Program-made: the position numbers and the translations under genes | In this document: positions 21,353 to 45,202 of the stretch, piece by piece | Layout of the letters: every line of letters begins with the position of its first letter | How positions within the stretch are numbered: the first letter of the stretch is position 1 | Notes under the pieces: model-generated | The model's input: only the letters and a program-made list of their open reading frames with translations | Told to the model about the DNA's origin: nothing | The model's database searches: none | NCBI GenBank assembly: GCA_902802575.1 | Contig: CADCMN010000009.1 | Span: forward strand, 375-64,374 | Length of the DNA: 64,000 nt | From: an uncultured Eubacteriales bacterium | GTDB lineage: Bacteria > Bacillota > Clostridia > Christensenellales > CAG-138 | Direction of reading: 5' to 3'

Positions 21353-21365
21353 GATAAATAAAAGC

Positions 21366-21397
21366 AAGCCGCTTTTCCGATACAGGAGAAGCGGCTT
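21366..21397. terminator. Bidirectional intrinsic terminator between convergent serpin and leuS genes
   Basis: AAGCCGCTTTTCC-gatacag-GAGAAGCGGCTT (one mismatch). The flanks are T-rich on both strands. Confidence 0.6.
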
Positions 21398-21455
21398 ATT
21401 GTGTATTGAAGTATATTTTCAGCGCGATGATCCGCTTGCCGGAGCAATCGAAACA

Positions 21456-23861
<2,406 letters not shown>

Positions 23862-24002
23862 GATTGCCTCCTGAAAAAGGATGAATTAAACGGTTTTACT
23901 AATCTATAAATGTATTACCTTTGTGAGCTTTTGTCAACAAACTTTACAAGGGGAGATAAGTGTGATAAGATGCAGAAAAACTGCCGGGAGGACAAACCAT
24001 CC

Positions 24003-24977
24003 ATGCATCCGTTCATCCATATAGGCGCCCTCTCCCTGCCCATGTATGGGCTGTGCGCTATGGTAGGGACCATCTTTGCCCTGCTCGCTGTGTTTCGGCT
24101 CAGAAAAAAAGGTTCGCCCATCTCCGAGGACAACCTGCTGGACGCCTTGATTTGGGCCATTTTGCTGGGATTCATATGCTCGAAGCTCCTGTATTTCATC
24201 GTGGAGCCGCCCCAGATGCCGCACAGCTGGGCGGAGGTATGGGAACTGATCTCCACGGGGCTGGTGTTCTATGGCGGATTGTTGGGCGGTCTGCTTGGCC
24301 TTGTGTTCGCGAGCCGCAAGACCGGTAAAAGCTTTCTTTCCTTCACGGACCTTATGGCGCCCTGCTTCTGTCTGGCTCACGCCGGCGGGCGTATCGGCTG
24401 CCTCATGGCAGGCTGTTGCTACGGCATGCCCTATTCCGGACCCTGCGCCGTGGTGTTGGACGGCGTGTCCCGGCTGCCCACGCAGCCCATGGAAGCGATT
24501 TTTCTGGTGATCCTTTCCGTGGTTCTGATAAAAATTTTTTTGAAAAAGCCGCGTCGGGGCACGGTCACGGGCTGGTATATGGTCCTCTACGCCGTATGGC
24601 GGTTCATCATAGAGTTTTTCCGGGCGGACGAACGGGGCACAGTGGGCGCTTTGTCCACCAGTCAGTTCATCTCCCTGTTCATATTTGCCTTCGGCATCTA
24701 TTTGCTGTACTGCAGCCGGCAGGCGGTGAATGATTTTGAAGCGGCGGAGCCGAAGGAACCCAAGCCCGCACCGGCGGAACGGCCGGAAACAGCGCCTCTG
24801 CCGGCGGACCCCTTGGAAGCGGTCAACGAGGATACGGGGACCGAAATCGAGGCTTCCGAGGTCAGCGTGCCTGAAGAGGAGGTTGCCGGCGCTTCCGCTG
24901 AGCTAAGCAGCGAAGGGAGTTCCGGCGCCGGGGCCGCCGAAGCCGATGGTGGCCCGGGGGACGGCGGCGACCAGTAG
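24003..24977 (+). CDS. lgt: Prolipoprotein diacylglyceryl transferase with an acidic, Pro-rich C-terminal tail
   Basis: MHPFIHIGALSLPMYGL..., YGGLLGG, GRIGCLMAGCCYG, PTQPMEA and RFIIEFFRADERG. The start is uncertain (ATG 24003 versus 23970). The last ~90 aa are low complexity. Confidence 0.85.
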   Translation: MHPFIHIGALSLPMYGLCAMVGTIFALLAVFRLRKKGSPISEDNLLDALIWAILLGFICSKLLYFIVEPPQMPHSWAEVWELISTGLVFYGGLLGGLLGLVFASRKTGKSFLSFTDLMAPCFCLAHAGGRIGCLMAGCCYGMPYSGPCAVVLDGVSRLPTQPMEAIFLVILSVVLIKIFLKKPRRGTVTGWYMVLYAVWRFIIEFFRADERGTVGALSTSQFISLFIFAFGIYLLYCSRQAVNDFEAAEPKEPKPAPAERPETAPLPADPLEAVNEDTGTEIEASEVSVPEEEVAGASAELSSEGSSGAGAAEADGGPGDGGDQ

Positions 24978-25020
24978 ATACAACCATCGGGAGGGCGGCC
25001 TTTGCCGCCTTCTTTTTATA

Positions 25021-25036
25021 TGTTTCACGTGAAACA
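25021..25036. promoter_or_regulatory. parS: parS centromere-like site (perfect palindrome)
   Basis: TGTTTCACGTGAAACA matches the Firmicute parS consensus exactly and lies directly next to the -35 element of the parA promoter. Confidence 0.85.
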
Positions 25037-25065
25037 TTGCTTTTTGCGTCGGGGTACGATATACT
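25037..25065 (+). promoter_or_regulatory. Candidate promoter of parA-parB
   Basis: TTGCTT (25037-25042), a 17-nt spacer, then TATACT (25060-25065). It is followed by AAGGAG and the TTG start at 25101. Confidence 0.5.
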
Positions 25066-25100
25066 GATACGGCAACGAAATAAAAAAAGGAGAATGATCC

Positions 25101-25862
25101 TTGGCAAAAATCATTTGTATCGCCAATCAAAAGGGCGGGGTGGGCAAAACCACCACCGCAGTGAACCTGTCTGCCTGCGTGGCTCAGTTGGGCAAACGGG
25201 TGTTGCTCATCGACATTGACCCCCAAGGAAACACCACCAGCGGCCTGGGTGTGAACAAAAACCGGTTGGACTATTCCGTCTACGACGTGCTCATCAATGA
25301 TGTGGACGCAGCGGACGCCGTGCGAGATACCATGATCGACACCCTGAAACTGTTGCCGGCGCGGGTGGAACTGGCCGGGGCCGAGGTGGAGCTGGTGAAT
25401 TTATTGGCCCGAGAGCATCGGCTGAAGAACGCCATCGCGCCGATTCGGGATCAGTATGAGTATATTTTTGTGGACTGCCCGCCGTCCTTGGGCCTGTTGA
25501 CGTTGAACGCCCTGACCATGGCGGATGCTCTTTTGGTACCCATTCAATGCGAATACTACGCGTTGGAGGGGCTTTCTCAGCTGATGAACACGGTGAAGCT
25601 CATTCGTCGGAGCCTGAATCCCCAGCTGGAAGTGGAGGGCGTGGTCCTGACCATGTATGATGGAAGGACCAATCTGAGCCAACAAGTGGTGGGTGAGGTG
25701 AAGCGGTTTTTCAAAAACAAGGTCTACGACACCATCATTCCCCGGTCCGTTCGGCTGGGAGAGGCTCCCAGCTTTGGTTTGCCCATCAGCCTGTATGCGC
25801 CTAAGAGCACCGGGGCGGCGGCCTATGGGACCTTGGCGGCGGAATTGGTGGAGAAAGCGTAA
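25101..25862 (+). CDS. parA: Chromosome partitioning ATPase ParA/Soj
   Basis: 253 aa with a TTG start and the deviant Walker A ANQKGGVGKTTTAVNLSA. Confidence 0.92.
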   Translation: MAKIICIANQKGGVGKTTTAVNLSACVAQLGKRVLLIDIDPQGNTTSGLGVNKNRLDYSVYDVLINDVDAADAVRDTMIDTLKLLPARVELAGAEVELVNLLAREHRLKNAIAPIRDQYEYIFVDCPPSLGLLTLNALTMADALLVPIQCEYYALEGLSQLMNTVKLIRRSLNPQLEVEGVVLTMYDGRTNLSQQVVGEVKRFFKNKVYDTIIPRSVRLGEAPSFGLPISLYAPKSTGAAAYGTLAAELVEKA

Positions 25863-25874
25863 GGAGGGAAGAAA

Positions 25875-26723
25875 ATGGCCATCAAGAAAGGCTTGGGGCG
25901 CGGTTTGGACGCTCTGTTGGAAAGCTATGAGCCCGGAAGGGGCCCGGCCACCCTGCAGGAGGTATCCGTCTACGATATCGACACCAATCCAGATCAACCT
26001 CGGAAGACCTTCGACGAAGAGAAGCTGCAGGAGCTGGCGGGGTCCATCAAAACCCATGGCATCGTCCAGCCCCTGATCCTCTATCAGCAGGGAAACAGAT
26101 ATACCATCGTGGCCGGGGAGCGCCGGTATCGGGCGGCCCGGCTGGCGGGGCTGAAGACGGTGCCCGCCGTCATCACGGACAAGGAGGAACACGAACTCCA
26201 GGAGGTGTCCCTCATCGAGAACCTGCAGCGGGAGGACCTGAACCCCGTGGAGGAAGCAGCGGCCATCCGGTTTCTCATGGTCCAGCATAACCTGACCCAG
26301 GAGGAGGTCAGCAGCCGCATCGGCCGCAGCCGCCCGGCGGTGACCAACGCCCTGCGGTTGTTGAACCTGCCCGAGAGCGTTCAGGGGATGCTGAAGGAAG
26401 GGGCCCTGTCCGCCGGTCACGGAAAGATGCTGGCGGGCCTCGAAGATCCGGAGAAGGCGGAGAAGCTGGCGCAAAAGGCGATGAAAGAGGGCTGGAGCGT
26501 GCGGCAGCTGGAAGAGGCGGTGCGGCTGGACGCCCTGCCTCGGAGGAAGGTCTCCAGACGCATGGACCCGGAGATCCGCCGGACGGCCAGCGCCATCCGC
26601 AGCAAGCTCCGGGCCAAGGTGGCCATCGAGGGGGACCAGGAGAAGGGGAAGATCATCATCTCTTACTTTTCCAAGGATGATTTGATGAACATCTGCGACG
26701 CCATCCTGGGCGTAGAGGAATGA
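25875..26723 (+). CDS. parB: Chromosome partitioning protein ParB/Spo0J
   Basis: 282 aa with GLGRGLDALL, IVQPLIL...IVAGERRYRAARLAGL (the ParB box with the GERR arginine patch) and a helix-turn-helix region. Confidence 0.92.
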   Translation: MAIKKGLGRGLDALLESYEPGRGPATLQEVSVYDIDTNPDQPRKTFDEEKLQELAGSIKTHGIVQPLILYQQGNRYTIVAGERRYRAARLAGLKTVPAVITDKEEHELQEVSLIENLQREDLNPVEEAAAIRFLMVQHNLTQEEVSSRIGRSRPAVTNALRLLNLPESVQGMLKEGALSAGHGKMLAGLEDPEKAEKLAQKAMKEGWSVRQLEEAVRLDALPRRKVSRRMDPEIRRTASAIRSKLRAKVAIEGDQEKGKIIISYFSKDDLMNICDAILGVEE

Positions 26724-26739
26724 TGTTTCACGTGAAACC
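26724..26739. promoter_or_regulatory. parS: Second parS site (15/16 match)
   Basis: TGTTTCACGTGAAACC fills the whole 16-nt spacer between the parB stop (26723) and the next ATG (26740). Confidence 0.8.
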
Positions 26740-27108
26740 ATGACGAAGGAAGAGCTGTTCGCCTATATCGGGAAGGAATACGGCGTGACGCCGGACTATC
26801 CCTGGCTGGACTCGCCGGAGGGGGCGGTGTTCCGCCATGTCGACAACCGGAAGTGGTTCGCTCTGTCCATGCCGATCCCGCGGCGGTACGCCTATCCAGA
26901 CGAGCCGGGCGAGGTGGACGCCGTGAATCTGAAGTGCGACCCGGTGCTCTCCGGCATGCTCCGGGGCGAGCCGGGGATCCTGCCGGCCTGGCATATGAGC
27001 AAGGTCCATTGGATCACCGTTCTGCTGGACGGCTCCGCAGACGACGACCGGCTGAAGTTCCTGCTGCACCAGAGTTTTGAATTGACGAAAAGCAAGAAAA
27101 GGAAATAA
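26740..27108 (+). CDS. MmcQ/YjbR-family DNA-binding protein
   Basis: 122 aa with GVTPDYPW...AVFRHVDNRKWFAL...WHMSKVHWITVLLDG, characteristic of the YjbR fold family. Confidence 0.65.
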   Translation: MTKEELFAYIGKEYGVTPDYPWLDSPEGAVFRHVDNRKWFALSMPIPRRYAYPDEPGEVDAVNLKCDPVLSGMLRGEPGILPAWHMSKVHWITVLLDGSADDDRLKFLLHQSFELTKSKKRK

Positions 27109-27253
27109 TAATTTTGCCGCTTTTTTCCAGTGAAAAGAAAAAGCGGCGGAAAAAGAAAAGCGTAAGAAGGTAATAGGAATTACCGCTTAAGCTTTTTTTC
27201 TTCATAAAGTTCTTTTAGTCCAACCTTTTCTTTCAAGAAAAGATGGGGAGGCT

Positions 27254-28210
27254 TCAATTCGTTCCTTTTCTCCCATGCTGGTACAGCTGACGATTGTCCA
27301 GCGCCCACTGGCGCTCGGAAAAGCCGCCCTTCACCACGCCGTCCAGGGCCGTGAACATCTCGAAGAGCTGGGCGTCCAGCCGATCCAGGGTGGAGAGGAC
27401 CTCGGCCTCGGGGAACATGGGGAGCTTGGGCGAGCCGAACTCCGGCTGTCCGTGATGGGAGAGGAGCATGTGTTCCAACAGGATGGCCGTCTCCTCGGGG
27501 ACCTGCAGCAGCTCCGCCGCAGAGCGGACCTCGGCCATGCCGATATTGATGTGCCCCAGAAGCTGTCCCTCGGCGGTGTAGGCGGAGGCCAAGCCCAGCT
27601 TGCCCGTGTCCAGCTCCGTGAGCTTGCCGAGATCGTGGAGGATGGCGCCGGCCACGATGAGCTCCCCGTCCAACTGGTCGTACCGAGCAGCCACGGCCTT
27701 GCCCATGGAGACCACGTTCAGCGTATGCTCCAAAAAGCCGCCCCGGGTGGCGTGGTGGAGCTTGACGGCGGCAGGATAGTACAGCATCTCCTTCTTGTGC
27801 TCCCGCATCAGATACTGGACCAGGCGCTTCAGGTCCTGATCCCGGAAAGCCTCGGTCTCCCGCCAGAGGATCTCATAGGCCGCGCCGGGGTCCTGGGGGG
27901 AGCAGGGAACGATCTTGGACATATCCACGTCGTCCGCTTCGGTGGCCTGACGGATGCGCTCGATCTTCAGCTGCTCGCTGTCCTTCCAGATGGTGACCGT
28001 GCCCCGGACCTTCACGATGTCCTCGGGCTCGAACATGCCCATGGAGGGGCCGTAGTTCCAGATCTTGGCCACACACTCGCCGCCGGCGTCCGCCAGCACC
28101 ATATCCATATAGGATCCGCCCTTGCTGTCGGTGCGAAGAGACGCGCTCTTCACCATGCAGAAGCCCTCCGTCTGCTGGCCGGGGGCGTTCAGGATGCTCA
28201 TTCTGCTCAT
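27254..28210 (-). CDS. yhaM: 3'-5' exoribonuclease YhaM-like (OB fold plus HD domain)
   Basis: 318 aa with an N-terminal OB-like VKVRGTVTIWKDSEQLKIERI and an HD domain GGFLEHTLNV...AGAILHDLGK. Confidence 0.7.
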   Translation of the reverse strand: MSRMSILNAPGQQTEGFCMVKSASLRTDSKGGSYMDMVLADAGGECVAKIWNYGPSMGMFEPEDIVKVRGTVTIWKDSEQLKIERIRQATEADDVDMSKIVPCSPQDPGAAYEILWRETEAFRDQDLKRLVQYLMREHKKEMLYYPAAVKLHHATRGGFLEHTLNVVSMGKAVAARYDQLDGELIVAGAILHDLGKLTELDTGKLGLASAYTAEGQLLGHINIGMAEVRSAAELLQVPEETAILLEHMLLSHHGQPEFGSPKLPMFPEAEVLSTLDRLDAQLFEMFTALDGVVKGGFSERQWALDNRQLYQHGRKGTN

Positions 28211-28281
28211 ATAAGATCTCCATTCTTTACCAATAGATACACATAGTATAGCAGATTTTTTTTCGATAGCAAACAGGAAGA

Positions 28282-28310
28282 TTGTAGAAACCCAAAAGCT
28301 ATGCTATACT
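28282..28310 (+). promoter_or_regulatory. Candidate promoter of mnmG-rsmG-pth-mfd
   Basis: TTGTAG (28282-28287), a 17-nt spacer, then TATACT (28305-28310). Confidence 0.4.
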
Positions 28311-28333
28311 GCTATACATAGGAGTATGCGCAT

Positions 28334-30226
28334 ATGAGCAATGTACTGACAACCAAGCCCCTCAGAGGGGAGCGCTTCGACTGCGTGGTGATCGGCGCGG
28401 GTCACGGGGGCTGCGAGGCGGCCCTGGCTGCGGCGCGCATGGGCCTCAAGACGGCTCTGCTCACGTTGAACCTGGACAGCATCGGCATGATGCCCTGCAA
28501 CCCCTCCATCGGCGGCACCGGCAAGGGGCACCTGGTCCGGGAGCTGGACGCCATGGGCGGGGAGATGGGTCTCGCGGCTGACGACACTCTGATCCAAATG
28601 CGCATGCTGAACACAGGCAAGGGCCCCGCGGTCCACTCCCTTCGGGCCCAGATGGACAAGCGTCGCTACCACGAGCGCATGAAGGCAGCCCTGGAAGCGG
28701 AGGACAACCTGACCCTGATCCAGAGCGAGGCCGTGGACTTTGTCACCGAAGGCGGCCGCCTTTCGGGCGTCGTCACGGCGGAGGGCTTCTGTTACCCTTG
28801 CCGGGCGGCGGTCCTGTGCACGGGCGTGTATCTGAAGAGCCGCATCCTCATCGGTGAATTCGTTCGGGAAAGCGGCCCGGCAGGCATGCTGCGGAGCGAG
28901 GGCCTTTCGGGGAACCTCAGCCGCCTGGGTATTCCCCTGCGGCGGTTCAAGACCGGCACGCCGCCCCGGGTCAAGCGGGACACCCTGGACTTTGGAAAGA
29001 TGACCATCCAGGAGGGGGACGAGCCCACCCCCGCCTTCTCCTTCCTCCACGGAGAGCTGCACCTTCAGCAGGACAAATGCTGGCTCACCTATACGAATTC
29101 GGACACCCATAGGATCATCCTGGACAATCTGGACAGGTCCCCTCTGTACGCGGGCCGCATCCACGCCACGGGCACCCGCTACTGTCCCTCCATCGAGGAC
29201 AAGGTGGTGAAGTTCGCCGACAAGGACCGGCATCAGCTCTTCATCGAGCCCGAGGGCCGGACCACCCAGGAGATGTACGTCCAGGGCCTGAGCACCAGCC
29301 TGCCCGCCGACGTGCAGGAAGCCATGCTCCACACCATCCCGGGCTTGGAGAAGGCCCAGATCATGCGCTACGGGTATGCTATCGAGTACGATTGCCTGGA
29401 CCCCCAGGCCCTGGACCTGAGCTTCATGGTGAAGGCCGTCCCCGGTCTTTTCTCCGGCGGTCAGATCAACGGCAGCTCCGGCTATGAGGAGGCGGCGGCC
29501 CAGGGCTTCTATGCCGGGGTCAACGCCGCCCTGTACGTGAAGGGCGAGGCGCCCTTCATCATCGGCCGGGACGAGGGGTATCTGGGCGTGCTGGTGGACG
29601 ATCTGGTCACCAAGGGCACGCCGGAGCCCTACCGGATGATGACCTCCCGCTGCGAGTACCGGCTGCTCCTTCGCCAGGACAACGCCGACGAGCGCTTGAC
29701 CGAAAAGGCCCGGCGCACGGGGCTTATTTCCGACCAACGATACGAAAAACTCCTGCGCAAGCGGGAAAAGGTGGCCGCCGCCCGGGCGAAGCTGGATAAA
29801 CGTGTCCCGGCGGACGAGAAGCTGCGGGCGTATCTGGAGAGCGTGGGTGAGAGCGTGCCCCACGACGGCGCCCGGTTGTTCGAGCTATTGAAGCGCCCCG
29901 GGGTCACTTACACGGGGCTCCTGGGCCTCTACGGGGACGATCTCGACCCCCTGGACCGGGAGACCCTGGAACAGATCGACGTCATGGCCCGGTACGACGG
30001 GTACATCGACAAAGAGCGGCGGGAGGTGGCGCGGATGCGCAGTTTGGAAAACCTGACCCTGCCGATAGACTTTGACTACAACACCCTGTCGGGGCTCCGT
30101 CTGGAAGCCCGGCAGAAGCTGAACGGGGTCAAGCCGGCGAACATCGGCCAGGCGTCCCGCATCTCGGGGGTGTCCCCGGCGGACGTGTCCGTGCTGCTGG
30201 TGGCCCAGAAACGGGGGATGCTGTGA
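28334..30226 (+). CDS. mnmG: tRNA uridine-5-carboxymethylaminomethyl synthesis enzyme MnmG (GidA)
   Basis: 630 aa with the FAD-binding VIGAGHGGCEAALAAARMG and conserved motifs NPSIGGTGKGHLVRELDA and GQINGSSGYEEAAAQG. Confidence 0.95.
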   Translation: MSNVLTTKPLRGERFDCVVIGAGHGGCEAALAAARMGLKTALLTLNLDSIGMMPCNPSIGGTGKGHLVRELDAMGGEMGLAADDTLIQMRMLNTGKGPAVHSLRAQMDKRRYHERMKAALEAEDNLTLIQSEAVDFVTEGGRLSGVVTAEGFCYPCRAAVLCTGVYLKSRILIGEFVRESGPAGMLRSEGLSGNLSRLGIPLRRFKTGTPPRVKRDTLDFGKMTIQEGDEPTPAFSFLHGELHLQQDKCWLTYTNSDTHRIILDNLDRSPLYAGRIHATGTRYCPSIEDKVVKFADKDRHQLFIEPEGRTTQEMYVQGLSTSLPADVQEAMLHTIPGLEKAQIMRYGYAIEYDCLDPQALDLSFMVKAVPGLFSGGQINGSSGYEEAAAQGFYAGVNAALYVKGEAPFIIGRDEGYLGVLVDDLVTKGTPEPYRMMTSRCEYRLLLRQDNADERLTEKARRTGLISDQRYEKLLRKREKVAAARAKLDKRVPADEKLRAYLESVGESVPHDGARLFELLKRPGVTYTGLLGLYGDDLDPLDRETLEQIDVMARYDGYIDKERREVARMRSLENLTLPIDFDYNTLSGLRLEARQKLNGVKPANIGQASRISGVSPADVSVLLVAQKRGML

Positions 30227-30909
30227 GCGATATGCGGGATATACTGAAACAGGCCCTGCCCCAAGCGGATGAGCAGGCCCTGGAGCGATTCGAGATCTAC
30301 CACCGGCTGCTGGCGGAATGGAACGAAAGGATGAACCTGACCGCCATCACGGACCCGGTGGAGGTGGCCGAAAAGCACTTTGCGGACTCCCTGGCGGCCT
30401 TGCCCTACCTGAAGGCGGGCATGAAGGTCATCGACGTGGGCACGGGGGCCGGGTTCCCCGGGGTGCCGCTGCTCATCATGGAGCCCGGATTGGAGCTGAC
30501 CCTGGCCGACAGCCTCCAAAAGCGGCTGACCTTTTTGGACGCCCTGCTTAAAGAACTGGGATTGAAAGCCGCCCTGGTCCACGGCCGGGCGGAGGATCTG
30601 GGGCAGAACAAGCTGTATCGGGAGCGGTATGACGTTGCGCTGTCCCGGGCGGTGGCGAACCTGCCGGTGCTGCTGGAGCTCACCACCCCCTTCGTGAAGG
30701 CGGGCGGGACGGCCATCGCCTACAAAGGCGACGGGGCCGAGGAGCTGAAAAACGCCAAATCGGCGGCCTTTTTGCTCCATGTGCAGCTCAGGAGCGTGGA
30801 GCTCGATTCCCCCCTGGGCAAGCGGTGTTTGATTTTCGCGGACAAAACCGCCCCCACGCCGAAACAGTATCCCCGGAAGGCCGGGACCCCCAACAAAAAG
30901 CCCCTGTAA
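30223..30909 (+). CDS. rsmG: 16S rRNA (guanine527-N7)-methyltransferase RsmG (GidB)
   Basis: 228 aa with WNERMNLTAI and the SAM motif VIDVGTGAGFPGVPL. The GTG start overlaps the mnmG stop. Confidence 0.9.
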   Translation: MSDMRDILKQALPQADEQALERFEIYHRLLAEWNERMNLTAITDPVEVAEKHFADSLAALPYLKAGMKVIDVGTGAGFPGVPLLIMEPGLELTLADSLQKRLTFLDALLKELGLKAALVHGRAEDLGQNKLYRERYDVALSRAVANLPVLLELTTPFVKAGGTAIAYKGDGAEELKNAKSAAFLLHVQLRSVELDSPLGKRCLIFADKTAPTPKQYPRKAGTPNKKPL

Positions 30910-30922
30910 GGAGGGAATGGAT

Positions 30923-31519
30923 ATGTATGTGATCGCGGGCCTGGGCAACCCGGGCTTGAGCTACCGGAAGACCCGGCACAATATCGGCTTCATGGCCCTG
31001 GACGTGATCGCTGAGCGAATCGGCGTCAAGATCAAGGATAAAAAGTTTTCCGGCCTTCTGGGCGAGGGCGAGCTGGCCGGGGAGCGGGTCATTTTGGTGA
31101 AGCCTCAGACCTACATGAACCTGAGCGGCGACTGCCTGCAGCAGGTCATGCACTTCTATAAGCTCCCCCCGGAGAAGCTCATCGTCCTCTGCGACGACGT
31201 GGATCTGCCCTGCGGGAGCCTGCGCATCCGCGCCAAGGGCTCCGCGGGCACCCACAACGGCCTCAGGAGTATCATCGCCTGCCTCAATTCCGAGAACTTC
31301 CCCCGGATCCGCATCGGCGCGGGCCAGGATATCTCCCTGCAGCTTCGGGATTACGTGTTGAAGCGCCCCGGCAAGGAGGAGGCGGCCCTGCTGCAGGAGG
31401 CCTATGAAAAGGCGGCGGACGCGGCGGCGCTCATCGTCAAGGGGGACGTGGAGGGGGCCCAGAGCCGCTTCAATAAGCGCCACGAGAAGAATCCCCGGCA
31501 GACCCCGACGGAAGAATGA
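30923..31519 (+). CDS. pth: Peptidyl-tRNA hydrolase
   Basis: MYVIAGLGNPGLSYRKTRHNIGF. The ATG at 30923 has better spacing from GGAGGG than the track start at 30917. Confidence 0.9.
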   Translation: MYVIAGLGNPGLSYRKTRHNIGFMALDVIAERIGVKIKDKKFSGLLGEGELAGERVILVKPQTYMNLSGDCLQQVMHFYKLPPEKLIVLCDDVDLPCGSLRIRAKGSAGTHNGLRSIIACLNSENFPRIRIGAGQDISLQLRDYVLKRPGKEEAALLQEAYEKAADAAALIVKGDVEGAQSRFNKRHEKNPRQTPTEE

Positions 31520-34500
31520 CGGATCGTCTCCTGTCACAACTGAAGAAGGACCCGGCGGTCAGCGAACTGCTGTCGGGACTCAGGAAGGGAAGGGGCCCGG
31601 CGGCGGTCTTTTCCCTGCCGGACGCTGCCCGTGCGCCGGTGTTCGCGACCCTTTCCGGGGAAGGGACCACTATGGTGGTCCTGGACACCGAGGCGGCGGC
31701 CATCGAGCTTTTCAACGAGATCAGGATTTACCGGCCTGACGCCCTGCCCTTCCTGCCCCGGGAACTCCCTCTCGTCCACGTCCAGGCGGCGGCCCCGGAG
31801 CGCCGGAGCCAGCGGCTGGGGGTCCTCTCCCGGCTGGTGCTGGGCGTGCCCACCCTCATCGTTACCTGCGCGGCGGCGCTCATGGAGCGTCTGGCCCCTC
31901 CGGAGGCCTTCGTGTCCCAGGTGAAAGTGGTGAAGCGGGGGGACGTGCTGCCGCCCCGGACGCTCCTTGCCGATCTGGTATCGGCGGGCTACGAGCGGGT
32001 GGACATGCTGGAGGGTCCCGGTCAGGCGGCCCTGCGCGGCGATATTTTGGACGTGTTCCCGCCCCAGGGGGAGGACCCCTGCCGGATCGAGTTTTTCGAC
32101 GACGAGGTGGATCAGCTTCGTTGGTTTGACGTGGCGACCCAGCGGTCCATCCGCCAGACGGATCGGGTGCTGCTGCCCCCCGCCTTTGAGACGCCTCAGC
32201 CCGGGACCAGGGTCCGCAAAGCCCTGAAAGCCCTGGGGGAGCGGGAGGGCTTCGACCGGGAGCGGGAGGACTGGGCGGATGAGCGGCCCACCTTGGGCGC
32301 GGACGTGCTGCTGCCCCTGCTGTATGAGGAGGAGGCCTCCCTGGACGACTATCTGCCCCGGGACTGTCTGCGGCTCGTGGTGGAGCCGGACCGGGTGCTG
32401 GAGGAGGGCCGGACGGGCCGGATGCTGTTTTTGGAGTCCGTCACCGCCATGTTGGAGCGGGGCGAGGGCCATCCCCAGCAGGCAAAGCTCCTGCGGGAGG
32501 ACGGTCATCTTGTCTCTGCGCTGAACACAGCGCGGACGGGAGCGGTCTACGCTCTGTTCCGTACCAGCCGGAGCTTGGAGCATCGGATGCGGGTGAAGTG
32601 CACCTTAGAGGGGGCGCCCATGTATCTCGGAGACATGGGGGAGCTTGCCCGGGAGCTGAAGCGATTCCGTCAATCCGGCGGCAGCGCCCTGCTGTACGGC
32701 GGCGAAAGCGCCGACAGCCTGCTGGACAGCCTTCAGGACGAGCTTCGGTGCGCCATAGCGGACGAACTGAACCGGGATCCTGAGCCCGGCGAGGTGCTGA
32801 TCCTCCGGGAGAGCCTGCCCCGGGGCTTCCTGTGTCCGGCCCAAAAGCTGATGGTGCTGACGGGGGCGGAGCTGTTCGGCAAACGCATGTCCCGGCCCCG
32901 GAAGAAGAAGAGCGGGCTGAAGTTTTCCGATCTGTCCGTGGGGGATTACGTGGTCCACGAGGCCCACGGCATCGGTCGGTTCGTGGGCGTGGAGCAGCTC
33001 ACCGTGCAGAACAGCACCCGGGATTATCTGCTCCTGCTCTACAAGGGCGGCGATAAGCTGTATATCCCCACGGATCAGCTGGACCGCATCCAGAAGTATA
33101 TGGGCTCGTCCGGCGAGGACGCGGCCCCAACCTTGAGCAAATTGGGGGGCGGCGAGTGGCAGCAGAAGGTCCAAAAGGCTCGGACGGCGGCGAAGAAGCT
33201 GGCGGTGGACCTGGCGGCCCTATACGCCAAACGAGCTTCCCTACAAGGCTTCGCTTTTTCGCCGGACACCGCCTGGCAGCGGAAGCTGGAAGCGTCCTTC
33301 CCCTACGAGGAGACCCGGGACCAGCTTCGGTGCATCCGGGAGGTGAAGGCGGACATGGAGAGCCGCCGGCCCATGGATCGGCTGCTGTGCGGCGACGTGG
33401 GCTACGGAAAGACCGAGGTGGCCATCCGGGCGGCCTTCAAGGCCATCCAGGACGGAAAGCAGGCGGCCATCTTGGCGCCCACCACCATCCTGGCCCAGCA
33501 GCACTATGCCACCATCTCCGAGCGGTTCGCCGCCTTCCCGGTGACCGTGGGCTGCCTCTCCCGGTTCCAGACGCCCAAGGAGCGGGAGGCTGTGAAGAAG
33601 GCGCTGGCCGCCGGAGAGCTGGACATGGTCGTCGGCACCCACGCGCTGCTGGCTAAGGACGTGAAATTCAAGGATCTGGGCCTGCTCATCATCGACGAGG
33701 AGCACCGCTTCGGCGTGAACCACAAGGAGCAGATCAAGGCCATGCGCAGCCAGGTGCTTCGGCGTGAACCACAAGGAGCAGATCAAGGCCATGCGCAGCC
33801 AGGTGGACGTGCTGACCATGACCGCCACGCCCATCCCCCGGACGCTGAACATGGCCATGACCGGGGTCAGGGACGTGTCCGTCATCGAGACGCCGCCGGA
33901 GAACCGGTTCCCGGTCCAAACCTTCGTGGTGGAGTACACCGACGCCCAGATCGCCGCCGCCATCCGCCGGGAGCTCGCCCGGGGCGGCCAGTGCTTCCTG
34001 GTCAGCAACAAGGTCATGGGCATGGAGAGCACCCTCAGCCACTTCCAGGAGCTGGTGCCCGAAGCCCGGTTCCTCATGGCCCACGGGCAGATGAACGAGC
34101 ACGCCCTGGAACAGGCCATGCTGTCCTTCATCCAGCGGGAGGCGGACGTGCTTTTGTGCTCCACCATCGTGGAGAGCGGCGTGGACATTCCGAACTGCAA
34201 TACCCTGGTGGTCCTGGACGCGGACAAGCTGGGCCTTGCGCAGCTCTATCAGCTGCGGGGCCGGGTGGGGCGGTCGAACCGCATCGCCTATGCCTACTTC
34301 ACCGTGCCCCAGAGCCGATCCCTGCCCGAGGCGGCCCAGAAGCGTCTGCTGGCCGTGCGGGAGTTCACCCAGTTCGGGGCCGGGTATCGGCTGGCCATGC
34401 GGGATCTGGAGATCCGGGGCGCCGGGAGCCTCTTAGGGGCGGAGCAGCACGGGCATCTTTCGGATGTGGGCTATGAATACTACTGCAAGCTGATCCGTCA

Positions 34501-35005
34501 GGCGGTGGACGAGGAAACGGGCCGAGAGGCGCCGCCTCTTATCGACACGGCGGTGGACGCCCCCGGGGACGCTTTCGTACCCAAGAACTACGTGAACGGG
34601 GAGCTGCAGCGGATGGCCATGTACAAGCGCATCGCCGAGATCGAGGACGAAAGCATGTTCGAGGATATGTACGACGAGTTCACCGACCGGTATGGAGATT
34701 TGCCGGAGGCTGTGGAGCGACTTATGCGGCTGTCGCTCATCAAGCATCTTGCCGCCGCCGCCGGGTTCCTTTCGGTGACGGTGAAGCCGGGAAAGGCCAC
34801 GCTGAAATATGATCGAAGCGCCCGACCCGAGGGGGGACGGCTGCTGCTGGCCTTATCGGGCGAACAGGGGGCCAGACTCCTTGCCGGGGATCCTGCGGCG
34901 GTGGAAATAACCGTCAAAGGACGCAGCCCGGATGAATTCGTAAAAAAACTGCCACAATTTCTTTCCATTCTGGCGGATTGCAACCGACCGGAGGAGAGGA
35001 TATAA
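31516..35005 (+). pseudogene. mfd: Transcription-repair coupling factor Mfd, interrupted by a frameshifting 49-bp tandem duplication
   Basis: Frame 1 (31516 onward) encodes the Mfd N-terminus, the RNAP-interaction region, Walker A (GDVGYGKTEVA) and motif II (IIDEEHRFGV), then degenerates after 33756. Frame 2 (33764-35005) continues with motif III (LTMTATPIPRTL) through the C-terminal domain. Removing one repeat copy gives one 1146-codon ORF. Confidence 0.85.
33708..33805 (+). repeat. Perfect direct tandem duplication, 2 x 49 bp
   Basis: CTTCGGCGTGAACCACAAGGAGCAGATCAAGGCCATGCGCAGCCAGGTG occurs at 33708-33756 and again at 33757-33805 with no spacer. The boundaries are ambiguous by 1 nt (G). 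Confidence 0.95.
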
Positions 35006-35042
35006 TGAAACGAAACATATAAAGCAGAAAGGAAATACAATC

Positions 35043-36458
35043 GTGAGCAAGAAACTTTTGGCGCTGCTGCTGTGCGTGCTGCTGATGCTGGGCCTGGCGG
35101 GATGTCTGGAGGAGACGAAACAAAGCGAAGAGGCCCCTGTCACGACGGCGACAAGCGAGCCGGCGGACACCAGCCTGGAGGACGAGCTGCCGGCCTTCAC
35201 GCTGGGAGACATCACGGTCACCGTGGGCGAAATCAGGAGCATCTATAACACCGTGGTGGAGCAGATGGGCTACTATGGCATGCAGGCGCCGAGCACGGCC
35301 GACGAGATCAAACAGTATAAGGATATGATCATCGAGGATATGCTCAACGCCAAGGTCCTGCCCTGGAAGGCCCAGCAGATGGGCATTGAACTCACGCCGG
35401 AAAAGGTGGAAGAGGTGAACCGGCAGGTGGAGGCGGAGCTGGCGGAGTACGCCGCAGACTATCTGGAGGACGCCAAAGCGGAGTTGGGCGATACGGCCAG
35501 CGCCGCGGATCTGGCCAAGAAGGCGCGGGAGTTTCTGGAAAAGGATGTGGAGGACTACTTCGGCTATCCCTTCAGCCAGTGGCTGGACGAGGTGAAGACC
35601 TCCTATATGGAGAGTGCGCTCACGGAGCTGTTGCAGGAGAAGTTCAACGAGGGCGTCACCGTCACCGACGAACAGGTCCGCGATTGGTTCAACACGGAAG
35701 CGGAAACCCAGAAGGAGAGCTTCACGTCGGACTATACCGCCTACAAGAGCCAGGTGGAGGCGTATCGTCTGGGCGAATCCAACGTGCCGGCCCTGTACAC
35801 GCCGGAAGGCTTCGCTCAGATGCAGGTCATCACCTTTGACATCGACGCCAACGACTACGCCGTCTATGCTGCCAATGAGGTGGAGATGACTAACCTGGAG
35901 GCGGAATATGGAAAGCTGGTCCTGCGGGGCCAGGACGAGGATCGGCAAACCGAGATCGCGGCCCGGTATGCAGAGCTGCAGGAAGCCAACCAGGCGCTGC
36001 TGAGCAAGACCAGCGACAAGGCGGCGAAGGCCAGAGCTGACGCGCTCAACGGCATGAGCTTCGTCGATATCTTCAAAACCTACTCCAACATGGAGGGCGG
36101 CATGGGATTCTTCGGCTACGACGAAGACAATCCGAAGCGGGACGGCACCGTCATCTTCTACACCAAGGAGAAGGATGCGGAGTGGCCGGACCAGGTCTGG
36201 AATATGGCTAAGGATATGAAGGACGGCGAGATCTCGGAGCTGCTTCAGGTGGGAGATTCCTTCTACCTTATCAAGCGCTTGGCGGACCTGCCGGAAGGCG
36301 TCGTTTCCTTCGATCAGGATGCGGCTGTCTACACCGCTGCAGCACTGGCTGAAAAGCAGACCAAGGAATGGGAAGCCGTCCAGGCGGACTGGCTCAGCGA
36401 AGCGCGGAATGCGGCCGTGTTCTATGAGGACAACTACGCAAGCGTGGGTGTAAAATGA
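35043..36458 (+). CDS. PrsA/SurA-like peptidyl-prolyl isomerase/foldase lipoprotein
   Basis: 471 aa with a GTG start, the lipobox GLAGC, a SurA-N-like helical region and a parvulin-like C-terminal segment (DGEISELLQVGDSFYLIKR). Confidence 0.55.
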   Translation: MSKKLLALLLCVLLMLGLAGCLEETKQSEEAPVTTATSEPADTSLEDELPAFTLGDITVTVGEIRSIYNTVVEQMGYYGMQAPSTADEIKQYKDMIIEDMLNAKVLPWKAQQMGIELTPEKVEEVNRQVEAELAEYAADYLEDAKAELGDTASAADLAKKAREFLEKDVEDYFGYPFSQWLDEVKTSYMESALTELLQEKFNEGVTVTDEQVRDWFNTEAETQKESFTSDYTAYKSQVEAYRLGESNVPALYTPEGFAQMQVITFDIDANDYAVYAANEVEMTNLEAEYGKLVLRGQDEDRQTEIAARYAELQEANQALLSKTSDKAAKARADALNGMSFVDIFKTYSNMEGGMGFFGYDEDNPKRDGTVIFYTKEKDAEWPDQVWNMAKDMKDGEISELLQVGDSFYLIKRLADLPEGVVSFDQDAAVYTAAALAEKQTKEWEAVQADWLSEARNAAVFYEDNYASVGVK

Positions 36459-37246
36459 GAGCACCGTCTTTGAGAAAAGCGGAGGTGGGCGATAAGCCCA
36501 CCTCTTTGGCGTATCGGGTGATTCGATACGGCGTGTGGCTCTTCTCTCCCAAGTGGCGGCTGTCGGGTGCGGAAAAGCTGCCGGACGGTCCCGCCATCAT
36601 CGTGGGAAACCATTCTCAGATGTACGGTCCCATCGCCATGGAGCTGTATACGCCCGGCCGTCACTGGGTCTGGTGCGCCGGGGAGATGATGCACCGGGAG
36701 GAGGTGGCCGCCTATGCCTATCAGGACTTCTGGTCGGGAAAGCCCAAGGCTGTCCGCTGGTTCTATCGGCTGCTGAGCCATCTGATCGTGCCGCTGAGCG
36801 TGTGCGTGTTCAACAACGCCCACACCGTGGGGGTGTATCACGACGCGCGGCTGTTGTCCACCTTCCGGGAATCGGCGCAGAAGCTGAAGGAGGGGGATCG
36901 GCTGGTGATCTTCCCCGAGTGCTATGACGAGCACAACAACATCGTCCACGCCTTTCAGGACCGGTTCATCGACCTGGGGCGCATGTATTATAAGCAGACC
37001 GGCAAAGCCCTGCCCTTCGTGCCCCTGTATGTGGCGCCGGCTTTAGGCGTGCTGTTTTTCGGGGAACCCATCCTCTTCGATCCGGCGGCGTCGGTGGAGC
37101 AGGAGCGCCGGCGCATCGCGGACGCCCTGATGGACGCCGTCACCGATCTGGCCGTGGCCCTGCCGGAGCACACCGTGGTGCCCTATCCCAATATCCCCAA
37201 GAAGGACTATCCCAAGAATATCCCCCTCCAAGTGTATTCCAAATGA
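36455..37246 (+). CDS. PlsC-like lysophospholipid acyltransferase family protein (atypical HX4D box)
   Basis: 263 aa with IIVGNHSQMYGP (His box with Gly in place of Asp) and a VIFPEC block. It has ATGA overlaps with both neighbouring genes. Confidence 0.5.
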   Translation: MRAPSLRKAEVGDKPTSLAYRVIRYGVWLFSPKWRLSGAEKLPDGPAIIVGNHSQMYGPIAMELYTPGRHWVWCAGEMMHREEVAAYAYQDFWSGKPKAVRWFYRLLSHLIVPLSVCVFNNAHTVGVYHDARLLSTFRESAQKLKEGDRLVIFPECYDEHNNIVHAFQDRFIDLGRMYYKQTGKALPFVPLYVAPALGVLFFGEPILFDPAASVEQERRRIADALMDAVTDLAVALPEHTVVPYPNIPKKDYPKNIPLQVYSK

Positions 37247-37917
37247 AAAAACAGCTGTATGACTATCGGGGCTTTTCTCTGAAAAAGCTGCATGAACCGC
37301 GATTCAGCCATCTGAAATTGCTGGGGGGCTGGATCGTTTATTTCTGTCTGTACTTCATCACGGAGAACCTGATCCCTGCGGAAAAATGCGCGCCCATCCA
37401 CTGCGCGCTGGACGATCTGATCCCTTTCAACGAGTGGTTCGCCGTCTTCTACGTGGGCTGGTACGCCCTGGTGTTTGGGACGCTGCAGTACACGCTGCTC
37501 TTCGACGTGCCCCGATTCAAAAAGGTCCAGACCTTCATCATGATCACCCAGGCCGTGGCCATGGTCTGCTACCTCCTTTGGCCCAGCCGCCAGGATCTTC
37601 GGCCCGAGGTCTTTCCCCGGGAGAACTTCCTCACGTCGGTCATGGCCTTCATCTACGCTTTCGACACCAGCACCGGCGTCTGCCCCAGCCTCCATGTGGC
37701 CTATTCACTGGGGATCCTGTCCGTGGGCTTGAAAAACGAAACCCTGCCCCCCTGGGCCAAGGCGGCCCTGTCCTTCTTTGTGTTCATGGTGTGTCTGGCG
37801 GTCTGCTTCGTGAAGCAGCACTCCGCGCTGGACGTCTTGGCCGCCCTGCCCGTGTGCCTGCTGGCCGAAGCGCTGGTCTACGGGAAAGACTACTGGCTGC
37901 CCAAATTCAAATCTTAG
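37243..37917 (+). CDS. PAP2-superfamily (PAP2_3-like) integral membrane phosphatase/phosphotransferase
   Basis: 224 aa with about 6 TM segments and PAP2 C2/C3-like motifs (PSLH and KQHSALD). Confidence 0.55.
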   Translation: MKKQLYDYRGFSLKKLHEPRFSHLKLLGGWIVYFCLYFITENLIPAEKCAPIHCALDDLIPFNEWFAVFYVGWYALVFGTLQYTLLFDVPRFKKVQTFIMITQAVAMVCYLLWPSRQDLRPEVFPRENFLTSVMAFIYAFDTSTGVCPSLHVAYSLGILSVGLKNETLPPWAKAALSFFVFMVCLAVCFVKQHSALDVLAALPVCLLAEALVYGKDYWLPKFKS

Positions 37918-38376
37918 GGGTTTCTTTTGCCGCTCTTGCTCCTCAGCAAAGAGGGGAAAAGCTCACCCGGAACCAATAATATCGCCTCCTGCCTGGCAAC
38001 GCTCGGGATGCTATCCCGCAGGGGCGATCCGCGAATCGCCCGAAAAGGGCCATAGCGCGAAACGGTTTTGTAAACCAATATATATACCCCATTTGTGCTT
38101 TTCTATTTGGGCGACTTTTTCCTTTGCTGGGGGCAAACCATAGTCGAAAGCATCGCGCAGCTTGCTTTCTGCTTGTTTTGCCCGTGCTGCGTCTCGCTGA
38201 ATCCCCCGCTGCGGGCGCTCGGCTTCGCACTCACTGAAAATAAAAAGACGCAAAGAAAACAGGCATATAATACCTTCCTTTATTCGCTATCCATTCGCCA
38301 ACGGTCGCTGAATTTGCACTCTAACCAGTTGGAAAGGGGGATGGTACAATCGAAGCACAGCGAAGGAGGAGGCAAC

Positions 38377-39156
38377 ATGGCAAAGTACAAAGCACTATTG
38401 ATCGATGATAACACCCAGTTCACCGAAAGCGTGAAAGGATATCTGCTGAGCCAGGATCGGTTCAGCGAGGTGGACACGGCCCAGGACGGGCGGGAAGCGC
38501 TGAATAAGCTGCGGGAGAAGACCTACGACGTGATGACCCTGGACCTCATCATGCCCAATGCGGACGGCCTGGCGGTGCTGGAGCAACTCTCGCTCCTGAC
38601 GCTGGATCCGGCTCCGGCGGTGGTGGTGATCTCCGCGTTGAAGAACGAGGCCATGGTCCGCCGCTGCTGCGCGCTGGGCGCTCGATATTATATGGTAAAG
38701 CCGGTGGACCCGGATACCATCAGCAAACGCTTGCTGGAGACGCTGGAAGGAGAGCCGGTGAAAGGGGGCGTCATGCCCTACGCCCCCACCCACCGGTCCT
38801 TCGAAGAGAAGGTCACGGCCATCTTTCTGGTGGCGGGGATCCCGGCCCACATCAAGGGCTATCACTACCTTCGGGAGGGCATCCGCCTGGTGTACAACGA
38901 CCCGGACCTCATCAACCGGATCACCAAGGAGCTGTACCCGGGCATCGCCAAGCGCTTCGACACCTCCCCCAGCAAGGTGGAGCGGGCCATCCGCCACGCC
39001 ATCGAGGTGGCCTGGACCCGGGGCAAGATCGAAAACCTCAACGCCCTCTTCGGCTACAACATCTATGGCAAGAACGACAAGCCGACGAACGGCGAGTTCA
39101 TCGCCCTCGTGGCGGACAAGCTGTTGATGGAGGAGCAGGGGAAAAAGGCGGGGTAA
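38377..39156 (+). CDS. spo0A: Sporulation master response regulator Spo0A
   Basis: The ATG at 38377 follows GAAGGAGGAGG. It has a receiver domain (LLIDDN...DVMTLDLIMPNADG) and the Spo0A-specific C-terminal domain (ITKELYPGIAKRFDTSPSKVERAIRHAIEVAWTRG...KPTNGEFIALVADKL). Confidence 0.93.
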   Translation: MAKYKALLIDDNTQFTESVKGYLLSQDRFSEVDTAQDGREALNKLREKTYDVMTLDLIMPNADGLAVLEQLSLLTLDPAPAVVVISALKNEAMVRRCCALGARYYMVKPVDPDTISKRLLETLEGEPVKGGVMPYAPTHRSFEEKVTAIFLVAGIPAHIKGYHYLREGIRLVYNDPDLINRITKELYPGIAKRFDTSPSKVERAIRHAIEVAWTRGKIENLNALFGYNIYGKNDKPTNGEFIALVADKLLMEEQGKKAG

Positions 39157-39457
39157 GCGAGGAATCTGTTGAGATCCTGCCTCCCTTCTTGAAAGAAAGG
39201 GGGATTCCAAAGAGCCTTACTTGTTCCAAACTGTCGTCTGCCGTTCCCGTTATCCCATTCGGTTTCTCTGTTTGCGCTGCTTTTGCTCTTTTTCGAAAGA
39301 GAAAAAGCGGCATATCAAAAAGGTTCACTTACAACTCTTGCAGGACGGTCCCCCCTGTCCTGCAGGGTGCCCCTAACCTCATGATCCGCGGGAGGCTGCC
39401 GCAACGGTCCTTTGCCCATGGGACCGGCGGCAGCCTTTCGCACGCATGTCCACGGCT

Positions 39458-39547
39458 TTATCCACAGCCAAAAGTGCCGTAAATCCAAGGTTTGGTGGAT
39501 AAGATGGTGGACAATGTGGATAATTTTCCCGAGGAGGCTGTGGATAA
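39458..39547. promoter_or_regulatory. Extra-origin DnaA-box cluster (3 perfect and 2 near-perfect boxes in 90 bp)
   Basis: TTATCCACA 39458-39466, GGTGGATAA 39494-39502, GGTGGACAA 39506-39514, TGTGGATAA 39515-39523 and TGTGGATAA 39539-39547. Confidence 0.75.
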
Positions 39548-39616
39548 ATGGGGGCAAATCCGAACAAACGGAAAATCCCGCAGAATGGGCATTTTTGGAC
39601 AAGTCCTCATGACGCG

Positions 39617-39645
39617 TTGACAGAGGACGCGCCTTGGGGTACAAT
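39617..39645 (+). promoter_or_regulatory. Near-consensus sigA promoter for the GT-C-like membrane protein gene
   Basis: TTGACA (39617-39622), a 17-nt spacer, then TACAAT (39640-39645). It lies about 45 nt upstream of the ATG at 39692. Confidence 0.65.
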
Positions 39646-39691
39646 GAGCGCAGCGAGGGATCCTGCAGGATGAGAAGGGAGGAACGGCAAA

Positions 39692-41056
39692 ATGGCACCA
39701 GACTATGGGTATTTCGGCACTATGGGCGCCCTGGCGCTGTTTCTTGTCGCCCTCTTTTGCCTGGATCGGCTGTGGGTCCGTGGGACGGCGCCGGAAAAAC
39801 CTTGGCCCGAGAACGAGGCGGCCGTGGGCTTTCTGCTGTTTTTGGCGAGCTTTTTGGTGCTGTACGTGCTCAACAACCATAAATTTGTCTTCTATAACAA
39901 CTACAGCTACCTGGCGGACGCTCTGCTCCACGGGCGGCTGTATGTGGACGGTATGCCGGCGTATTTGGAGTCGGTGGAATTTGGCGGCCATTCCTACATG
40001 CACTTCGCCCCCGGCCCGGCCATCCTGTGCCTGCCCTTTGTGGCCGTATTCGGCGTGTACGGGTTCAACATCGCATGGCTGTCCATGGCGCTGGGCGCGG
40101 CCAACACGGCCCTCGCCTATCGGGTGCTTCGGCAGATGGGCATCGGTCGTGATCGACGGGAGCGGATCTGGTGCGCGGCGCTGCTCACCTTCGGCACGGT
40201 CCACTGCTTTTTGGCGGCCCTGGGCCACGGCTGGTTCCTGGGGCATGTGTCCAGCTGGTTCTTCCTGTTCGTCGGCATGGTGTTCCTTACCGTACCGGAG
40301 GATAAGCGAAAGGACGTGCATCTGTTTCTGGCGGGGGTGTTCTACGGCTGCGCGGTGACCTGCCGGATGCCGAATCTGCTGGGGGCGCTGTTCTACGGGG
40401 GGTACATCCTGACCCGGTACAAGCGGGAGACCTGGATCCGATCCCTGCTGTTCTTCTGCCTGGGGGCGGCGGTGCCCGGAGGCCTGTATATGCTCTATAA
40501 CTATGCGCGCTTCGGCACCATCATGGACAAGGGCTACAATCTGACCCACCTGAAGGATCTGTTCCGGAGCCGGTATGATGAAATGCAGGAGCTGCCCAAA
40601 GGGGAGCAAATGGCGTTTCTGAAGGCGGCGGAGCAGGAGGTGGGCGGCCCGCTGCAGCTCAAGCACGTGAAGCATAACCTCTATTCCATCTTCCTGCTGG
40701 GGCCGGAGTTCACCCGGGAATACCCCTACGTGATCCCCACGCTGGCGGGGGTGTCGCTGACCCACCTGTCCCCGGCGCTCTATATGGCGATCCGAGCCCC
40801 GTACCGGCGGGACAGGCTCACCTGGTTCCTCCTGGCCACGACGGTGGCCTGCGCCGTGCCCTTCCTCATGAACTACGGGAACGGGTTCGCCCAGTTCGGC
40901 ATGCGCTACGCCATGGACTTCCTTCCCTATGTGGGGATCCTGGCCGCCATGGGCCTGACACGAACCCCTCTGCGGGGCTGGAAGGCGGCGCTGATCCTCC
41001 TGTGCATGCTCCTGAACATGTGGGGGCCGGTGTACTGGAATATCTTTTATACGTAA
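39692..41056 (+). CDS. Polytopic membrane protein, putative GT-C-fold (ArnT/PMT-like) glycosyltransferase
   Basis: 454 aa with about 11-12 TM segments and loop features reminiscent of GT39/GT83-type enzymes. The call rests on general architecture only. Confidence 0.45.
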   Translation: MAPDYGYFGTMGALALFLVALFCLDRLWVRGTAPEKPWPENEAAVGFLLFLASFLVLYVLNNHKFVFYNNYSYLADALLHGRLYVDGMPAYLESVEFGGHSYMHFAPGPAILCLPFVAVFGVYGFNIAWLSMALGAANTALAYRVLRQMGIGRDRRERIWCAALLTFGTVHCFLAALGHGWFLGHVSSWFFLFVGMVFLTVPEDKRKDVHLFLAGVFYGCAVTCRMPNLLGALFYGGYILTRYKRETWIRSLLFFCLGAAVPGGLYMLYNYARFGTIMDKGYNLTHLKDLFRSRYDEMQELPKGEQMAFLKAAEQEVGGPLQLKHVKHNLYSIFLLGPEFTREYPYVIPTLAGVSLTHLSPALYMAIRAPYRRDRLTWFLLATTVACAVPFLMNYGNGFAQFGMRYAMDFLPYVGILAAMGLTRTPLRGWKAALILLCMLLNMWGPVYWNIFYT

Positions 41057-41145
41057 AGGTATAGCGTAAAAGCTGCGCACCTTTTCTTTTCGAAGAAAAG
41101 GTGCGGTCAAACGAACTGTATTTTGAATAAGACGGACCCTTGCGA

Positions 41146-41176
41146 AGCCTATGCTCACCCATAGGCTTTTCTTTTT
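41146..41176 (+). terminator. Intrinsic terminator, second of two hairpins after the GT-C-like gene
   Basis: AGCCTAT-gctcaccc-ATAGGCT followed by TTTCTTTTT. It is preceded by a 13-bp hairpin at 41076-41105 (CGCACCTTTTCTT-ttcg-AAGAAAAGGTGCG). Confidence 0.5.
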
Positions 41177-41209
41177 ACCTGAAAAGAAAAAGCCGCAAAA
41201 GAGAAAGGG

Positions 41210-43017: not shown

Positions 43018-43084
43018 ATCGAAAATCAGTGGACAAACTTGCTCTTTCCCGCTATGCTATGGCCATCGAAAGGAGGTCGAAGCC

Positions 43085-43525: not shown

Positions 43526-43536
43526 AGGAGGAAAAC

Positions 43537-43986: not shown

Positions 43987-44022
43987 CTGCAGGCCGTCAA
44001 ACACCCTTTGGCAAGCTGATTT

Positions 44023-45193: not shown

Positions 45194-45202
45194 CTATTTG
45201 CT

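Follow-up and report, generated by a model that had tools for sequence, protein, structure and literature searches.

The DNA analysed here, a window of 64,000 nucleotides (64 kb), contains on its forward strand a peptidyl-tRNA hydrolase gene, pth, whose stop overlaps the start of mfd, the gene for the transcription-repair coupling factor Mfd (Table 1). This pth-mfd order is the usual one in Firmicutes, and in locus L082 the gene upstream of mfd encodes a 198-aa product. A single uninterrupted mfd ORF was not found in the deposited sequence. Rather, the gene is written as two overlapping ORFs in different frames. ORF A contains the UvrB-homology domain, the RNAP-interaction domain, and helicase motifs I and II (Pfam matches UvrB_inter, CarD_TRCF_RID, and DEAD) and ends in an out-of-frame tail of 239 aa that is rich in Arg, Pro, and Gly. 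ORF B, the frame of which is open from 33719 and whose GTG start is preceded at 7 nt by AGGTG, contains motifs III to VI, the TRG region, and the C-terminal TRCF domain (Pfam matches Helicase_C and TRCF). The Mfd domain set of UvrB-homology, CarD_TRCF_RID, DEAD plus Helicase_C, and TRCF domains is thus complete across the two ORFs together. ORF A is identical to the public protein P0014, a singleton cluster found on one 64,541-bp contig present in both NCBI and ENA.

Table 1. Positions of the features discussed, numbered from the first base of the 64-kb window
Feature	Position	Strand	Basis
pth (peptidyl-tRNA hydrolase)	30917..31519	+	ORF list; PF01195 match in relatives' gene upstream of mfd
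ORF A, 986 aa: Mfd residues 1-747, then out-of-frame tail from 33757	31516..34476	+	ORF list, translation, Pfam
Helicase motif II, DEEH, residues 727-730	33694..33705	+	Translation; alignment to M. smegmatis Mfd 6ac6
Unit copy 1, CTTCGGCGTGAACCACAAGGAGCAGATCAAGGCCATGCGCAGCCAGGTG, 49 bp	33708..33756	+	Sequence comparison, TRF
Unit copy 2 = surplus sequence, 49/49 identical	33757..33805	+	Sequence comparison, TRF
ORF B, 413 aa, GTG start: Mfd residues 734-1146, authentic frame	33764..35005	+	ORF list, translation, Pfam
Helicase motif III, TATPIPRT	33821..33844	+	Translation; alignment to solved Mfd
Assembly-fragile zone around duplication	33607..33867		Contig ends, deletion, chimera, longest inter-species exact matches

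The two frames are separated by a perfect head-to-tail duplication of 49 bp, the copies of which show zero divergence. TRF called it at 33707-33805 (period 49, 2.0 copies, 100% matches), the extra base arising because a G precedes both copies and leaves a 1-bp ambiguity at the boundary. The novel junction is 33756|33757 (CAGGTG|CTTCGG), and boundary homology amounts to only this 1 bp. With a chance expectation of about 64000 x 4^-49 for a 49-bp repeat in 64 kb, which by our own arithmetic is negligible, the repeat cannot be a product of chance. No other perfect tandem duplication with a period of 20 to 600 was found in the window, and the window contains no Ns, so none lie between the two copies.

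The frameshift at 33757 falls between helicase motifs II and III. When one 49-bp copy was removed, a single ORF of 1146 codons was obtained that scored 1007.7 bits against TIGR00580 mfd (cut-off, 800) and aligned over its full length with Mfd proteins of solved structure, including 6ac6; on sequence grounds its identification as Mfd (TRCF) is unambiguous. The first-pass annotation of this DNA, made from the letters and ORFs alone, had described the identical copies, the course and ends of both frames, the break between motifs II and III, and the restoration of one ORF by deletion of a copy, and all of these were reproduced by sequence comparison, TRF, the ORF list, and translation. It was likewise right to infer that no intact Mfd can be made from the gene in its deposited form. 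Of the three explanations that it left side by side, the first, an assembly artefact, is the one favoured by the comparative evidence set out below, and its interpretation overall is partly supported.

The most direct comparison is with the same strain. The MEGAHIT contig k141_1864482 (57 kb; ENA ERZ27280758) differs from the window by 2 mismatches in 36,721 aligned bases and contains one copy of the 49-bp unit. On the two sides of the junction, window positions 20923-33756 aligned with 2 mismatches and positions 33756-46458 with none. The Mfd encoded by this contig (P0128, 1146 aa) matches the restored ORF at every residue. Both mismatches, at 22176 and 22180, are positions at which the window matches other strains, from which it follows that the window and k141_1864482 are independent consensus sequences. 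The duplication is therefore absent from an independent assembly of the same strain.

Further conspecific contigs from many rumen samples were found by exact look-up of the flanking genes. All eight conspecific assemblies that span the site (96.9 to 100% identity) contain the unit once and lack the junction; no assembly in the comparison is known to share its sample of origin with the window. One copy was also found at each of 11 related loci (75 to 90% nucleotide identity), ten of them from a scan of species genomes and the eleventh on the contig of P0001, and on two further metagenome contigs. Exact searches with a 31-nt sequence spanning the junction came back empty, both across 185,579 species genomes and across the JGI metagenome collection, and a scan of all 114 fetched loci did not find the junction in any of them. 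No split mfd was found among the relatives, in which the gene is always a single ORF of 1116 to 1157 aa. The first-pass annotation had called for comparison with mfd of related genomes, and we count the single copy returned by every comparison as evidence against its more biological explanations.

The close relatives are uncultured, Christensenellales-like rumen Clostridia, mostly "RUG" MAGs of Stewart et al., which were assembled by idba_ud 1.1.3 in single-sample mode plus MEGAHIT (PMC6785717), the single-sample assemblies behind them being those of idba_ud v1.1.3 (PMC5830445). When the closest Mfd proteins were aligned, three of them proved to lack internal segments of invariant regions. In P0006, residues 699 to 728, including part of motif II, are missing; this protein is encoded on the idba_ud scaffold ERZ1051909:scaffold_33030, which is also in NCBI within a deposited MAG. 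The deletion in scaffold_33030 is 90 bp long, corresponds to window positions 33609-33698, and thus ends 9 bp before the duplicated unit. At the join this scaffold switches strain, its identity to L007 passing from 99.1% to 97.6% and its identity to L010 from 89% to 100%. In P0007, from the idba_ud scaffold ERZ1039855:scaffold_21995, an 81-bp deletion removes 27 residues from the RNAP-interaction domain, and P0003 lacks 10 residues.

The names of the form scaffold_N and the ERZ10xxxxx series match those of the idba_ud single-sample assemblies from which the RUG MAGs were built, and the names suggest that scaffold.fa was taken from these. In the cohort, sister records bear scaffold_N names, and P0014 shares its combined NCBI and ENA provenance with the idba_ud scaffold_33030. 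From this provenance, which is like that of P0006, from strain identity to samples of the Stewart cohort, and from length, we infer that the window is itself an idba_ud scaffold.

The duplication also sits where this mfd shares its longest runs of exact identity with the mfd of other species. These runs enclose the unit (gene positions 2193-2241) and measure 131 nt in L111, 119 nt in L003, 95 nt in L021, and 68 nt in each of L001, L004, and L006. In other assemblies, contig termini lie at window positions 33607, 33697, and 33867, and two further contigs stop at Mfd residues 697 and 767; the ends and starts of independent contigs pile up at gene positions of about 2092, 2183, and 2302. One contig becomes chimeric at gene position about 2277, some 32 to 36 bp past the unit. 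Altogether, 7 of 20 other discontinuities in mfd fall within the 213 nt around the unit, which make up 6.2% of the gene (binomial p = 1.3e-4, an optimistic value because the interval was chosen post hoc). By these sequence comparisons, the duplication appears to sit at a branch point of the assembly graph where contigs end.

When 1.14 Mb of fetched loci were scanned without bias for perfect tandem duplications, a single further case that breaks a gene came to light, a 56-bp perfect duplication without boundary homology that frameshifts tyrS in RUG13758. The collapsed tyrS ORF scores 384 bits against TIGR00234 (cut-off, 114). A real consensus-level frameshift in tyrS, an essential aminoacyl-tRNA synthetase gene, is biologically implausible. 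Gene-breaking duplications thus number one in about 68 kb of RUG loci versus none in about 1.08 Mb of other loci, a difference that is no more than suggestive. A TyrS homology search found no same-strain intact tyrS allele for RUG13758. The contig of P0031, an independent assembly of the RUG13758 region, stops short of tyrS. The top TyrS match in that search belongs to another species, locus L112 on a human-gut assembly scaffold, and contains a perfect 291-bp in-frame duplication of tyrS; it is uninformative on the frequency of such duplications, because duplicated proteins score higher and the find is biased accordingly.

From these comparisons we consider that the organism itself most likely has no second 49-bp copy and that the extra sequence is probably an assembly artefact introduced at a scaffold join. 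The mechanism that we infer from the comparative evidence would begin with the stretch of mfd between motifs II and III, which would be the longest exact DNA identity common to several co-occurring rumen Christensenellales-like species. Such a stretch would form a shared node in the de Bruijn graph, so contigs would break there, and a paired-end scaffolder, most likely idba_ud, would then have abutted two contigs of the same strain with a mis-estimated overlap. Under-trimming at such a join would leave a perfect tandem duplication, as in the window and in tyrS of RUG13758, and over-trimming would give the mirror image, a deletion, as in scaffold_33030 and scaffold_21995. The path assembly of IDBA may trim contigs by the estimated negative distance and leave the overlap unchecked, which would give exactly such a duplication. 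The true gene would then probably be the intact 1146-codon mfd found in the same strain elsewhere, with nothing toggled and nothing lost.

The length of the unit speaks against an artefact, as 49 matches no standard k or k-1 (100/99 for idba_ud, 87 or 141 for MEGAHIT, and 55 for SPAdes), and we rejected an untrimmed overlap of k or k-1 at the settings of these three assemblers as its source. A simple model of two contigs meeting around the shared run of 68 nt was also discarded, since it predicts a duplication of 50 bp with other boundaries, as was a de Bruijn cycle arising from a short internal repeat, which needs homology where the boundaries share only 1 bp. The window is not itself chimeric at this place, both flanks of the unit matching k141_1864482 at 100%.

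It is unlikely, on balance, that the duplication is instead a real and very recent loss-of-function allele, that is, a spontaneous 49-bp duplication that inactivated mfd and formed the majority in one sampled rumen population. The deposited sequence does show the duplication, its copies abut without Ns, and contigs of a de Bruijn assembly with k > 98 should hold only read-supported junctions, an argument that applies if the contig is not scaffolder output. Mfd is dispensable in the bacteria in which it has been studied, and the rest of the gene is undecayed and 100% identical to P0128, as expected of a very young mutation. Since the window and k141_1864482 represent separate consensus sequences, an allele specific to one sample is possible. 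Against such an allele, the duplication recurs in none of the eight conspecific assemblies and nowhere in the two large collections, and its microhomology of 1 bp is less than slippage duplications usually use. Moreover, the site coincides with a tangle in the assembly graph, 9 bp from an obvious scaffold-join deletion, and the same class of anomaly occurs in the essential tyrS of a sister MAG. Were the duplication real, it would amount to an on/off allele occurring naturally in mfd, and such an allele would be of interest: Mfd is linked both to transcription-coupled repair and to how drug resistance evolves.

The first-pass annotation had also raised a reversible switch, in which mfd would be OFF while duplicated and ON again once exactly one copy had been lost, in the manner of cap3A. 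Slippage or recombination can in principle remove exactly one copy of a perfect 49-bp tandem repeat, and the ON allele is present in the same strain elsewhere, on k141_1864482. With such a switch, a rumen Clostridia lineage would gain and precisely lose a 49-bp repeat and thereby toggle Mfd, together with transcription-coupled repair and the mutagenesis that depends on Mfd. The OFF allele never recurs, and no duplication of any kind was found at this locus in the other assemblies examined; the other anomalies in mfd are deletions on idba_ud scaffolds, and with 1 bp of homology no sequence feature favours re-formation of the duplication. As every argument for an artefact at this graph tangle counts against a switch as well, the proposal is unsupported and very improbable. 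A literature search for mfd together with tandem duplication or such switching returned no match.

A special case of a real duplication, a functional Mfd in two pieces consisting of ORF A and of a C-terminal piece whose translation restarts at the GTG at 33764, would draw on the AGGTG that the junction sets upstream of this in-frame codon and on the complete Helicase_C and TRCF domains of ORF B, yet it is scarcely credible, as the break cuts into the first RecA-like domain, ORF A would be burdened with its nonsense tail, and mfd is split in no relative. Programmed frameshifting or bypass was rejected, since it would insert 16 residues between motifs II and III and nothing similar is found in relatives.

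The duplication is thus, judged from sequence comparison, most probably not a real feature of the organism, and its practical value is as a worked example of how conserved motifs of co-occurring species can lead to assembly tangles. Scaffolded metagenome assemblies can write perfect duplications and deletions into conserved and even essential genes, such as mfd and tyrS, and these errors are carried on into public protein databases, where they appear as genes that are "split" or "truncated", with P0014, P0006, and P0007 as cases. Screens of MAGs for pseudogenes, gene loss, or phase variation should therefore filter scaffold-join errors.

Three known systems can be compared with this locus. ON/OFF switching by duplication has a precedent in pneumococcus, where it acts on the capsule gene cap3A (Waite et al. 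2001, as cited in PMC11163986). Taken at face value, the mfd sequence resembles cap3A, as PMC11163986 recounts its phase variation, in being an inactivating, intragenic, non-triplet tandem duplication, an OFF state that would be undone if exactly one copy were lost. It differs in that, according to the same account, many cap3A duplications recur and revert in culture, whereas the mfd duplication is one instance in one assembly at an error-prone site; recurrent duplications in independent populations were not found in the other assemblies or collections searched. To Mfd itself (TIGR00580; structures 2eyq, 6ac6, and 6x26) the likeness of the collapsed ORF extends to all domains and motifs, an equivalog score, and the pth-mfd context, the difference being that the deposited gene lies in two overlapping frames, which in the organism is probably not so. 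For IDBA-UD, local assembly errors have been documented, the mark of which is sequence that no read supports perfectly (Chen et al. 2020, PMC7111523), and one type of error leaves duplicate sequence at scaffold joins, usually with Ns between the copies (PMC7111523). The copies in the window differ from these published duplicates in that they abut, and the window is, from provenance, strain identity, and length, probably rather than certainly an IDBA-UD product. The likeness lies in extra sequence that perfectly copies the adjoining sequence at a point where many assemblies break, in its absence from independent assemblies of the same strain, and in the deletions and the duplication of the same size class in sister idba_ud scaffolds.

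Over the 36,721 bases aligned, only two positions (see the table) distinguish the window from k141_1864482, a contig of the same strain that carries a single copy of the 49-bp mfd unit. At both positions the window has the bases common to other strains, the pair being private to k141_1864482. In related strains (L084, L085, L094, and L095), identity to the window is about 99.3% on the left side of the mfd unit and 96.9% on its right side, a drop that suggests strain mosaicism or recombination around mfd. Small gene-content changes were also observed relative to these strains at window positions 27112-27266 and 37909-38272: upstream, the related strains contain an additional 219-amino-acid ORF; downstream, they carry an insert with RHH_1 and DUF4352.

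In a further strain of 98.9% identity, mfd stops ~32 to 36 bp past the unit (L097:~4517-4719; contig k141_211622 of ENA ERZ27256669), and from there on the contig sequence is unrelated and AT-rich, apparently representing the end of a low-GC organism's gene. Either chimerism at the contig end or an insertion into mfd beside motif III would account for this switch.

Two scaffolds were found to carry in-frame deletions in mfd. The first (L113:3295|3296; ENA ERZ1051909:scaffold_33030, also in NCBI) lacks 90 bp corresponding to window 33609-33698, which removes part of helicase motif II from its Mfd (P0006). A strain change in scaffold_33030 coincides with the deletion breakpoint, and idba_ud scaffolding has likely produced a chimeric join there. 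The second (L114:~2217-2219; ENA ERZ1039855:scaffold_21995) lacks 81 bp (window ~32938-33015), leaving the RNAP-interaction domain of its Mfd (P0007) short of 27 residues. The public protein entry P0003 is likewise missing 10 conserved Mfd residues (848 to 857).

Perfect tandem duplications were also found in tyrS. In RUG13758, a deposited MAG used as a GTDB species representative, tyrS is frameshifted by a 56-bp duplication (L020:940-1051; RUG13758_asm_20, CADAZC010000020.1) with no boundary homology, and removal of one copy yields a 406-amino-acid TyrS (TIGR00234, 384 bits). This duplication is probably a scaffold-join artifact of the kind proposed for mfd. An assembly from another study (record prefix POOL19-1) contains a 291-bp in-frame duplication (L112:2377-2958; ENA ERZ28619437, POOL19-1_SAMEA4731498 scaffold_2296), with which TyrS as assembled (P0135) is 503 amino acids long.

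Repeat-protein genes of the window and its base differences from k141_1864482
Feature	Window position	Strand	Basis
Large secreted or membrane protein, Pro/Thr-rich linker repeats	12165-14783	-	
Large secreted or membrane protein, Pro/Thr-rich linker repeats	58228-59766	+	
Large secreted or membrane protein, Pro/Thr-rich linker repeats	59770-62304	+	
Base differences to k141_1864482	22176 and 22180	- (leuS region)	Alignment

The three large proteins of the window are apparently related to one another and share the linker repeat motif …PTPEPTAEPT…, which accounts for the imperfect tandem arrays detected by TRF at 13018-13556, 59460-59604, and 60944-61046. In contrast to the perfect mfd duplication, these linker arrays are ordinary coding repeats.
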